A DNA stretch of 16,685 nucleotides, taken from positions 1-16,685 of the forward strand of contig JAYVRN010000521.1 of the NCBI GenBank assembly GCA_043776275.1. Reading direction: 5' to 3'. The position numbers were made by a program, and so were the translations under genes. Each line of letters opens with the position of its first letter. Within the stretch, counting starts at the first letter, position 1. This document shows positions 8,775 through 8,984 of this stretch, piece after piece. The stretch is from Myxococcales bacterium (lineage in GTDB: Bacteria > Myxococcota_A > Polyangia > Haliangiales > Haliangiaceae). The notes under the pieces are model-generated. The model had not been told where the DNA came from. It ran no database searches and worked only from the letters and a program-made list of their open reading frames with translations.

Positions 8775-8984
8775 CCCAGCTTCGATGGTACCTCAACCAA
8801 CCAAACGCAACGGTTGCCCGCCCGCGGTCATCGAATGCTGGACCGCAGTGCTGGTTGCTCCAGCGCAGCGCACAGGGGTTGCTCCAGGACAGCGCACTGC
8901 TCCACACCGGAGCGATGCGCCGCGCACTCGGCGCGAGGTCTCGCGGACCTGCACCTGGATGGATTCTTGAACGGAGGGGTGTCC
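8775..8984. promoter_or_regulatory. Divergent intergenic region shared by the AAA-ATPase operon (-) and the MVP gene (+)
   Basis: 210 bp lie between the divergent start codons. The region has relatively lower GC (caaccaaccaaacgcaac) and contains direct repeats. An RBS (ggagggg) sits 5 nt upstream of the MVP ATG at 8985. Confidence 0.4.
8853..8897. repeat. Imperfect direct repeat (~21 nt x2, period 24) in the divergent promoter region
   Basis: ggttgctccagcgcagcgcac at 8853-8873 and ggttgctccaggacagcgcac at 8877-8897 match at 19 of 21 positions. A third gcgcac lies at 8922-8927. This arrangement is typical of tandem transcription-factor binding sites. Confidence 0.4.

Follow-up and report, generated by a model that had tools for sequence, protein, structure and literature searches.

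The activator NifA, which has a GAF-AAA+-HTH architecture, works from an upstream activating sequence (UAS) of the form TGT-N10-ACA, and the boxes bound by OmpR/PhoB are direct repeats of 6-10 bp with a periodicity of about 10-11 bp, placed beside the -35 region of sigma-70 promoters. The NtrC enhancer at glnAp2-type promoters reads TGCACC(A/T)4TGGTGCA (PMC4987338). In Myxococcus xanthus, PexR, a bacterial enhancer-binding protein (bEBP) made of GAF, AAA+ and DNA-binding domains, uses three tandem interrupted palindromes, CACCG-n6-CGGTG, as UAS upstream of sigma-54 promoters; it targets ahpC and katB and also represses an overlapping sigma-A promoter (PMC12754779). Here, we have analyzed a 16,685-nt stretch of DNA from a Myxococcales bacterium (contig JAYVRN010000521.1, assembly GCA_043776275.1; its whole length is called the window below), and in particular the region that precedes a gene that encodes a major vault protein (MVP) homologue. 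Bacterial homologues of MVP occur widely among myxobacteria, with no function or regulation described, and a search of the literature on bacterial MVP regulation, including one dedicated preprint, found nothing on their control. We consider it likely that this region is a three-dyad bEBP enhancer associated with a sigma-54 promoter driving MVP, and that the activator is a bEBP with a GAF domain and a Fis-type HTH. By analogy, PexR would be the closest described system.

To look for conserved elements, MVP loci were gathered without regard to the motif, three from assemblies (L001 to L003) and 80 from metagenomes, and the 260 nt upstream of every MVP start were read for recurring elements. With about 85 related MVP loci compared, the unit conserved in the relatives proved to be a 17-bp dyad, TGCTCC-N5-GGAGCA, found in two to four adjoining copies per MVP upstream region. 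Its consensus, TGCTCC(R)-N3-(Y)GGAGCA, is composed of 6-nt half-sites around a 5-nt spacer (6-5-6). A logo built on 43 dyads from 18 dyad-positive MVP loci reads T-G-C-T-(C/T)-C-R-nnn-Y-G-G-(A/C)-G-C-(A/G), in which G2 and C16 are invariant while T1, C3, T4, C6, G12, G13 and G15 are kept in at least 86% of the sites. A position weight matrix (PWM) was trained solely on the dyads of the other loci and run over both strands of the window, where it recovered three neighbouring sites. The distal one, dyad 1 (TGCTCCagcgcAGCGCA, 8856-8872), has a perfect left half and a right half matching at 4/6 positions; it gives the second best score of the window (15.89) and has an orthologous site in L001, L002 and L003. 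Dyad 2, in the middle (TGCTCCaggacAGCGCA, 8880-8896), ranks third (15.35) and is kept in L001 to L004 and in L039. The promoter-proximal dyad 3 (TGCTCCacaccGGAGCG, 8898-8914) matches the consensus at 11/12 positions, has the best score of the window (19.02) and is the most conserved site across the relatives. The centres of the three dyads (8864, 8888 and 8906) correspond to about -118, -94 and -76 from the predicted transcription start, so that multiple dyad-symmetric sites, conserved in 18 loci, occupy the interval of about 70-150 bp upstream of the start.

These sites recast what the original prediction had described as a direct repeat. The two 21-nt copies that it reported do exist: GGTTGCTCCAGCGCAGCGCAC (8853-8873) and GGTTGCTCCAGGACAGCGCAC (8877-8897) are identical at 19/21 positions, start 24 nt from each other and lie, as claimed, at the middle of the 210-bp divergent intergenic region (8775-8984) between an AAA ATPase gene, whose ATG is at 8774 (minus strand), and MVP, whose ATG is at 8985. 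The repetition is thus real, and its unit is dyad-symmetric: dyads 1 and 2 are the cores of copies 1 and 2, and the third and better copy, dyad 3, which abuts copy 2, had been overlooked. A further GCGCAC, proposed as a third half-site, does occupy 8922-8927, which is 30 nt beyond the one in copy 2, and falls outside the element; it is not conserved, as this stretch differs between the window and L001 and shows a 10-nt gap in L002 and L003. Nor does 24 nt hold as the relevant period, since the dyads of the window start 24 and 18 nt apart and the commonest spacing in the relatives is 18-19 nt. The near-identity of copies 1 and 2, their tandem arrangement in direct orientation and their location upstream of a regulated gene also recall the direct repeats of an OmpR/PhoB-type response regulator. 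Here, by contrast, the conserved columns draw a 6-5-6 dyad, the starts are 24 and 18 nt apart instead of about 10-11, and the sites are accompanied by a -24/-12 element, with no adjoining sigma-70-like -35/-10 promoter. An operator of this type was rejected as highly improbable. The NtrC-like type, suggested in the same claim, pointed to the right class, namely a bEBP acting on sigma-54.

The cluster of dyads is not a product of chance. Six dyads with at most two mismatches were found in the window against 1.25 expected, a number reached in 0/200 shuffles, and three sites within 60 nt were generated in 0/300 Markov simulations. The top three PWM matches over both strands of the 16.7-kb window start at 8898, 8856 and 8880, and even the third-best score, 15.35, exceeds the maximum of 12.89 reached in 100 null simulations. 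The related loci, 539 kb in all, contain 57 dyad matches (at most two mismatches), and 34 of them lie less than 200 bp upstream of the MVP ATG, an interval that makes up about 3% of this sequence. A chance origin is excluded, and the reading as a genuine regulatory site cluster, conserved in relatives, is borne out. The fourth-best match of the window, TGCTCCGCGCCGGCTCA (2093-2109), lies inside an ExbB/MotA-like gene with a score near the 95th percentile of the null and is probably due to chance. Tandem Repeats Finder, run on the window, did not report the 24-nt repeat, because two copies remain below its score threshold.

Tandem duplication can take part in the history of such arrays. Four dyads of L036, about -150 to -77 from the MVP ATG, form a 19-bp tandem array (GGCTGCTTCATGGCGGCGC...), and dyad arrays can therefore expand in this way. 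This growth, together with the identity of copies 1 and 2 that reaches into their flanks (GGT...C) past the dyad consensus, could suggest that the repeat of the window is a recent and neutral 24-bp duplication devoid of function. The two sites are orthologous in L002, L003, L004 and L039, whose MVP proteins share 82-89% identity, while the surrounding intergenic DNA has diverged; with the PWM and enrichment tests added, a neutral duplication is barely credible.

Since every dyad can form a 6-bp hairpin, the palindromes could also be viewed as stem-loops of a long MVP 5' untranslated region regulated at the RNA level. In line with this possibility, single-sided changes compatible with G-U pairing number 25 on the plus strand versus 10 on the minus strand, a mild excess that is explained by two recurrent transitions and shared ancestry. 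Against it, 65 single-sided deviations were counted versus 2 compensatory doubles; the deviations being overwhelmingly one-sided, base identity and not pairing is conserved. Folding of the region shows no unusual stability (z = -1.75, 13/200 shuffles folding as well) and no Rfam match was obtained at E <= 1, so that compensation, stability and family searches all fail to indicate a structured RNA element. Finally, the predicted start is downstream of the dyads, and dyads also precede the canonical sigma-54 promoters of another operon. RNA-level control appears very unlikely.

The sigma-54 consensus is yTGGCACGrnnnTTGCw (PMC12754779), and natural non-canonical sigma-54 promoters have been catalogued (PMC12316311). 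On the plus strand of the window, a sigma-54-type promoter candidate, TGGATGgattcTTGAA, is found at 8956-8971, with the -24 GG at 8957-8958 and G8969 A8970 at -12. Compared with TGGCACG-N4-TTGCW it matches at 8/12 positions; GG and TTG are in register and the -12 dinucleotide is GA instead of GC. The original prediction had seen neither a sigma-54 nor a sigma-70 consensus nearby: a sigma-54-like element does exist, though degenerate at -12, and a scan of 8600-9150 on both strands retrieved no sigma-70-like -35/-10 pair. The homologous -12 element is GC in 12/18 related dyad-positive loci, and the pattern TGG-N9-TG[CA]A occurs 14-20 nt before the MVP ATG in 18/18 dyad-positive versus 3/38 dyad-negative loci. 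At the homologous position, consensus scores rise to 10/12 in L052, L079 and L080 and to 9/12 in L031, and distant orthologues (55-62% MVP identity) carry near-consensus elements such as cGGCACctgcgTTGCA in L079 and cGGCACtgcgcTTGCT in L052. Other GG-N10-GC candidates of the window, within 8915-8956 and around TGGACCGC (8838-8846), were inspected by eye and are all 1-2 nt out of register.

Transcription from sigma-54 promoters starts about 12 nt after the -12 position and depends on rpoN and on the hydrolysis of ATP by the activator. The -12 position of the window element is 15 nt before the MVP ATG, and this geometry predicts a start region at 8980-8984 on the plus strand, near 8982, so that the ATG would be preceded by a leader of no more than about 3 nt. 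Similarly short distances were observed elsewhere. The consensus promoters of L031, L052, L079 and L080 have their -12 position 14 nt before the MVP ATG, without Shine-Dalgarno (SD) sequence, and the interval from -12 to ATG is also short (12 or 14 nt by two counts) for a gene of L171 encoding an MBL-fold hydrolase. Such spacings make near-leaderless sigma-54 transcripts plausible in this lineage. Our search of the literature on leaderless sigma-54 transcripts in Myxococcus found nothing relevant.

The distances between dyads and promoter also show steps of about 10.5 bp. In the window, 52 nt separate the proximal dyad centre from the -24/-12 element. Measured to the -24 GG, most MVP loci give values of 40-43, while 52-53 applies to the window, L001 and L007 and three further loci reach 63; before the hydrolase-bEBP operon presented below, the values are 50-52, 62-64 and 75. 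A period of 10.5-11.5 bp fits best, with a phase common to the MVP and hydrolase-bEBP sets (R = 0.80), a dependence on the face of the helix that is descriptive, the sequences being related. This is the pattern that would be expected for an activator bound to a fixed face of the helix. A single 10-bp insertion between dyads and promoter sets the window and L001 apart from L002 and L003.

A genome-wide scan for dyad arrays pointed to a candidate activator. Run against 185,579 species genomes, the query, in which a TGCTCC half-site comes after a perfect dyad, matched at least 120 loci. Among the matches listed, most are chance hits in unrelated phyla, and the Kofleriaceae/Myxococcales loci L118, L123, L127 and L171 have the array before a gene encoding an MBL-fold hydrolase. 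In L118, L127 and L171 the hydrolase gene is followed by that of a protein of about 500 amino acids with GAF, Sigma54_activat and HTH_8 domains, L123 ending at the edge of the sequence block. The boxes between dyads and operon in these loci, TGGCAC/TGGCAT/TGGCGC-N5-CTGCT/CTGCA/GTGCA, are canonical for sigma-54. No MVP gene was detected by tblastn in the scan-matched genome blocks, partly since these blocks end at 8-kb boundaries, as seen with L123. To remove ascertainment bias, bEBP homologues were also picked by protein similarity alone (L204 to L206, 65-81% identity). All have the hydrolase upstream of the bEBP and a dyad pair (at most three mismatches) before the operon, with promoter boxes TGGCAT/TGGCGC-N5-CTGCA/CTGCT; the sole dyads with at most two mismatches in each 9.5-kb locus sit before the operon (two in L204, two in L206, one in L205). 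Dyads and -24/-12 element are thus found together in all seven hydrolase-bEBP loci as they are before MVP, that is, coupled in two unrelated target operons. Because its own operon carries the dyads, the GAF bEBP is the natural candidate to read them. It is likely the cognate, autoregulated activator, with MVP in its regulon, a step that we infer from these shared sites.

Several other observations concern this operon and related activators. Variant half-sites, TGCGCC...GACGCA, are common to L205 (2941-2976, before the bEBP operon) and L207 (about -105 from the MVP ATG), which come from sister metagenome-assembled genomes (MAGs); the anecdote is compatible with co-evolution of site and activator. 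The search for one genome with both a dyad-bearing MVP gene and the bEBP operon returned none, P0037 coming from the sister MAG GCA_041389925.1 and not from the assembly of L205. For the MBL hydrolase of L204 to L206 and L118, a precomputed Pfam match designates Anti-Pycsar_Apyc1, a cyclic-nucleotide phosphodiesterase; this match did not appear in our own hmmscan (E <= 0.001), and we do not rely on it. In MVP clades lacking TGCTCC dyads, a different bEBP gene, with a GAFTGA motif, lies directly upstream of MVP in L069 (762-2930), L017 and L034, or about 2 kb upstream in L047, L049 and L051. Control of MVP by sigma-54 and a bEBP may therefore be a recurring theme. Exact TGCTCC-N5-GGAGCA arrays within 8 kb of sigma-54 activator genes were also seen in four Zoogloea genomes (L089, L111, L117 and L166) and may belong to an unrelated bEBP with a similar enhancer. 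In contrast, the five array-pattern matches of L157 (2814-3008, a Bacteroidota MAG) follow a strict 42-nt period and represent some other tandem repeat.

Compared with the described systems, the locus resembles the NtrC enhancer in having a 17-bp dyad with 6-nt halves and a 5-nt spacer, 10 of the 12 half-site positions being identical, and in presenting multiple sites 70-150 bp upstream of a -24/-12 promoter, where dimers would bind and then oligomerize. It differs by a swap at positions 4 and 14 (TGCTCC/GGAGCA here, TGCACC/GGTGCA for NtrC), by a spacer that is not A/T-rich, by sites that abut at 18-24 bp, and by a target that is an MVP homologue and not nitrogen genes. With its TGCTCC-N5-GGAGCA consensus and a candidate activator endowed with a GAF sensor in place of a phosphorylated receiver, it is not an NtrC regulon site sensu stricto. 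The likeness to PexR includes the phylum (Myxococcota), a GAF-sensor bEBP, three tandem palindromes with a well conserved 5' half and a degenerate 3' half, and the binding of the activator's own promoter region, which here would be that of the hydrolase-bEBP operon. The targets are different, repression of a sigma-A promoter has no evidence here, and both half-sites and spacer length depart from CACCG-n6-CGGTG, so that these are not PexR regulon sites. As for NifA, the candidate activator shares its GAF-AAA+-HTH architecture and a dyad UAS upstream of a sigma-54 promoter, and several of the bEBP homologues are labelled "Nif-specific regulatory protein" by JGI. The motif nevertheless rules out a NifA UAS, being 17 bp long (TGC-N11-GCA) versus 16 bp (TGT-N10-ACA), and no nif genes are present.

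The dyads lie between two divergent genes, and it had been suggested that a shared promoter could couple both transcription units. The window, L001 and L003 are the only loci in which the AAA gene is the divergent neighbour of MVP. In L002 four genes stand between them and in L039 one, encoding 211 amino acids, and no AAA gene is present in the available sequence upstream of MVP in 13/18 dyad-positive loci tabulated; AAA-MVP synteny is restricted to the closest relatives. Dyads and -24/-12 box remain before MVP in all loci where AAA is absent or displaced. Since they stay with MVP when its neighbour changes, the module belongs to MVP, and the suggested coupling finds no support among the relatives. 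Alternatively, one enhancer could co-activate both divergent units. The dyads are independent of orientation and 82-140 nt away from the AAA ATG, and a CGTTGC box before AAA is kept in all five relatives. On the AAA strand, this box forms, with a GG in register, a sigma-54-like promoter about 40 nt from a dyad in L039 (CGGCCAggacgTTGCA) and at an equal distance in L003 (CGGGTGgagcgTTGCA); in L039, where the 211-aa gene has been inserted, the dyad in question belongs to a second, separate pair, TGCTCCggttcGGCGCA and TGCTCCatccgGGAGCG, at 822-860 beside AAA (start 758-767). Conversely, in the window and L001 the AAA-side GG misses the register by one base (GG-N9-GC), the sigma-54-like promoter is absent in L002, where no dyads precede AAA, and the loci without AAA upstream argue in the same direction. 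We regard co-activation by one enhancer as doubtful, with some chance of being correct; the hints of shared control are confined to L003 and L039, and in the window the dyads might also act on the AAA operon.

The window is GC-rich and comes from a myxobacterial MAG of Kofleriaceae-like type. The MVP-like gene (8985-11444, plus strand) encodes 819 amino acids with Pfam matches to MVP_shoulder (1.5e-25) and Vault_3 (4.5e-09), and homologues of this protein number in the thousands. The divergent gene (7434-8774, minus strand) encodes a 446-aa protein with TPR and AAA (PF00004) domains according to Pfam and is the first gene of the neighbouring operon, where it is followed by genes for a small membrane protein and a TPR protein. 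An exact copy of the MVP protein of the window was looked for in public assemblies and not found; the closest public relative, L001 (contig JADKKI010000072, GCA_016720595.1), which was used instead, has an identical gene order and 99% MVP identity. Despite a long in-frame shadow open reading frame, the intergenic region is non-coding, because its indels among close relatives (4, 10 and other lengths) are not multiples of three. A single and weak terminator-like match was found on the minus strand at 8822-8809. Adjoining dyad 1 upstream, the block ATCGAATGCTGGACCGC (8830-8846) hardly varies between the window, L001, L002 and L003, in which it is better conserved than dyad 1 itself; its L001 version includes the near-palindrome ACCGCGGT, and the block is retained next to the AAA-proximal dyads of L039. 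Another palindrome, CGCGAGgtCTCGCG (8932-8945), stands downstream of the dyads and ahead of the -24 box and is partly conserved in L001, L002 and L003. In a clade of 52% identity, L066 and L077 have a tRNA-like sequence (GGTTCGAATCCCTC and GGTTCGACTCCCTTCGCGGGCC, respectively) directly upstream of MVP.

Our proposal for the window is that activator dimers would bind the three adjacent dyads, whose centres precede the predicted start by about 118, 94 and 76 bp, and would then assemble into an active ATPase oligomer. This oligomer would contact the sigma-54 RNA polymerase held at 8956-8971 and open the promoter, allowing transcription of MVP. The activator would be the bEBP with a GAF domain and a Fis-type HTH, whose gene would lie at another place in the genome, in operon with the MBL-fold hydrolase; the same dyads before this operon's own sigma-54 promoter imply autoregulation, and the signal sensed by the GAF domain would switch on MVP expression.

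A number of points weigh against this proposal. The -12 dinucleotide is GA in the whole clade of the window (window, L001 to L005 and L039). An SD-like GGAGG (8974-8978) lies between -12 and ATG, upstream of the predicted start and hence outside the predicted transcript, which therefore implies either a nearly leaderless mRNA or another promoter; in this clade, a second promoter would exist unless the SD goes unused. The right halves of dyads 1 and 2 are weak (4/6). The distance statistics are drawn from related loci and have descriptive value, not that of independent data, and the regulon outlined by the array scan is incomplete. Lastly, a cognate activator with a GAFTGA-bearing AAA+ domain and a C-terminal HTH would be expected in the genome, whereas the 16.7-kb window contains no activator gene; the hydrolase-bEBP operon comes from related Kofleriaceae and Myxococcales genomes, and it and rpoN would have to be encoded elsewhere in that of the window. 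The GA at -12 and a start that is predicted keep the assignment at likely.

The first two of these points also feed another explanation, in which the dyads would be operators through which an ordinary dimeric HTH regulator, either repressing or activating in class I fashion, controls a sigma-70-type promoter of MVP, of the AAA operon or of both, without sigma-54. A GA at -12 followed by an SD-like sequence suggests a start further upstream, and the PexR precedent indicates that dyad arrays can overlap and repress a sigma-A promoter (PMC12754779). This explanation is at odds with the lack of a sigma-70-like pair over the interval scanned, with the -24/-12 element that accompanies the dyads, helically phased, in 18/18 MVP and seven hydrolase-bEBP loci, and with the presence of a bEBP gene in the co-regulated operon. 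We find it unlikely, and retain the bEBP enhancer and sigma-54 promoter as the probable function of the region.

The mechanism itself is textbook, a bEBP enhancer associated with a sigma-54 promoter, and the value of the finding is that of an entry point and not of a new principle. It provides a first testable regulatory link for the bacterial homologues of vault proteins, a gene without described function. The motif TGCTCC-N5-GGAGCA is a new enhancer motif with which further members of the regulon can be sought in Kofleriaceae genomes. Tentatively, and with somewhat less than even confidence, we propose that MVP homologues of Kofleriaceae-type myxobacteria belong to a small sigma-54 regulon under a GAF bEBP that autoregulates its MBL-hydrolase operon; MVP would be signal-induced, often from a near-leaderless transcript, and the neighbouring TPR-AAA operon may draw on this enhancer in the closest relatives. 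If true, expression of the vault shell would be an induced response, possibly to a small ligand turned over by the hydrolase. The pairing of a GAF sensor with an MBL hydrolase hints at a nucleotide-type signal, a hint dependent on the Apyc1 label that our own hmmscan did not reproduce. Together, the enhancer, the promoter and the candidate GAF activator open the timing of bacterial vault protein synthesis to experiment.

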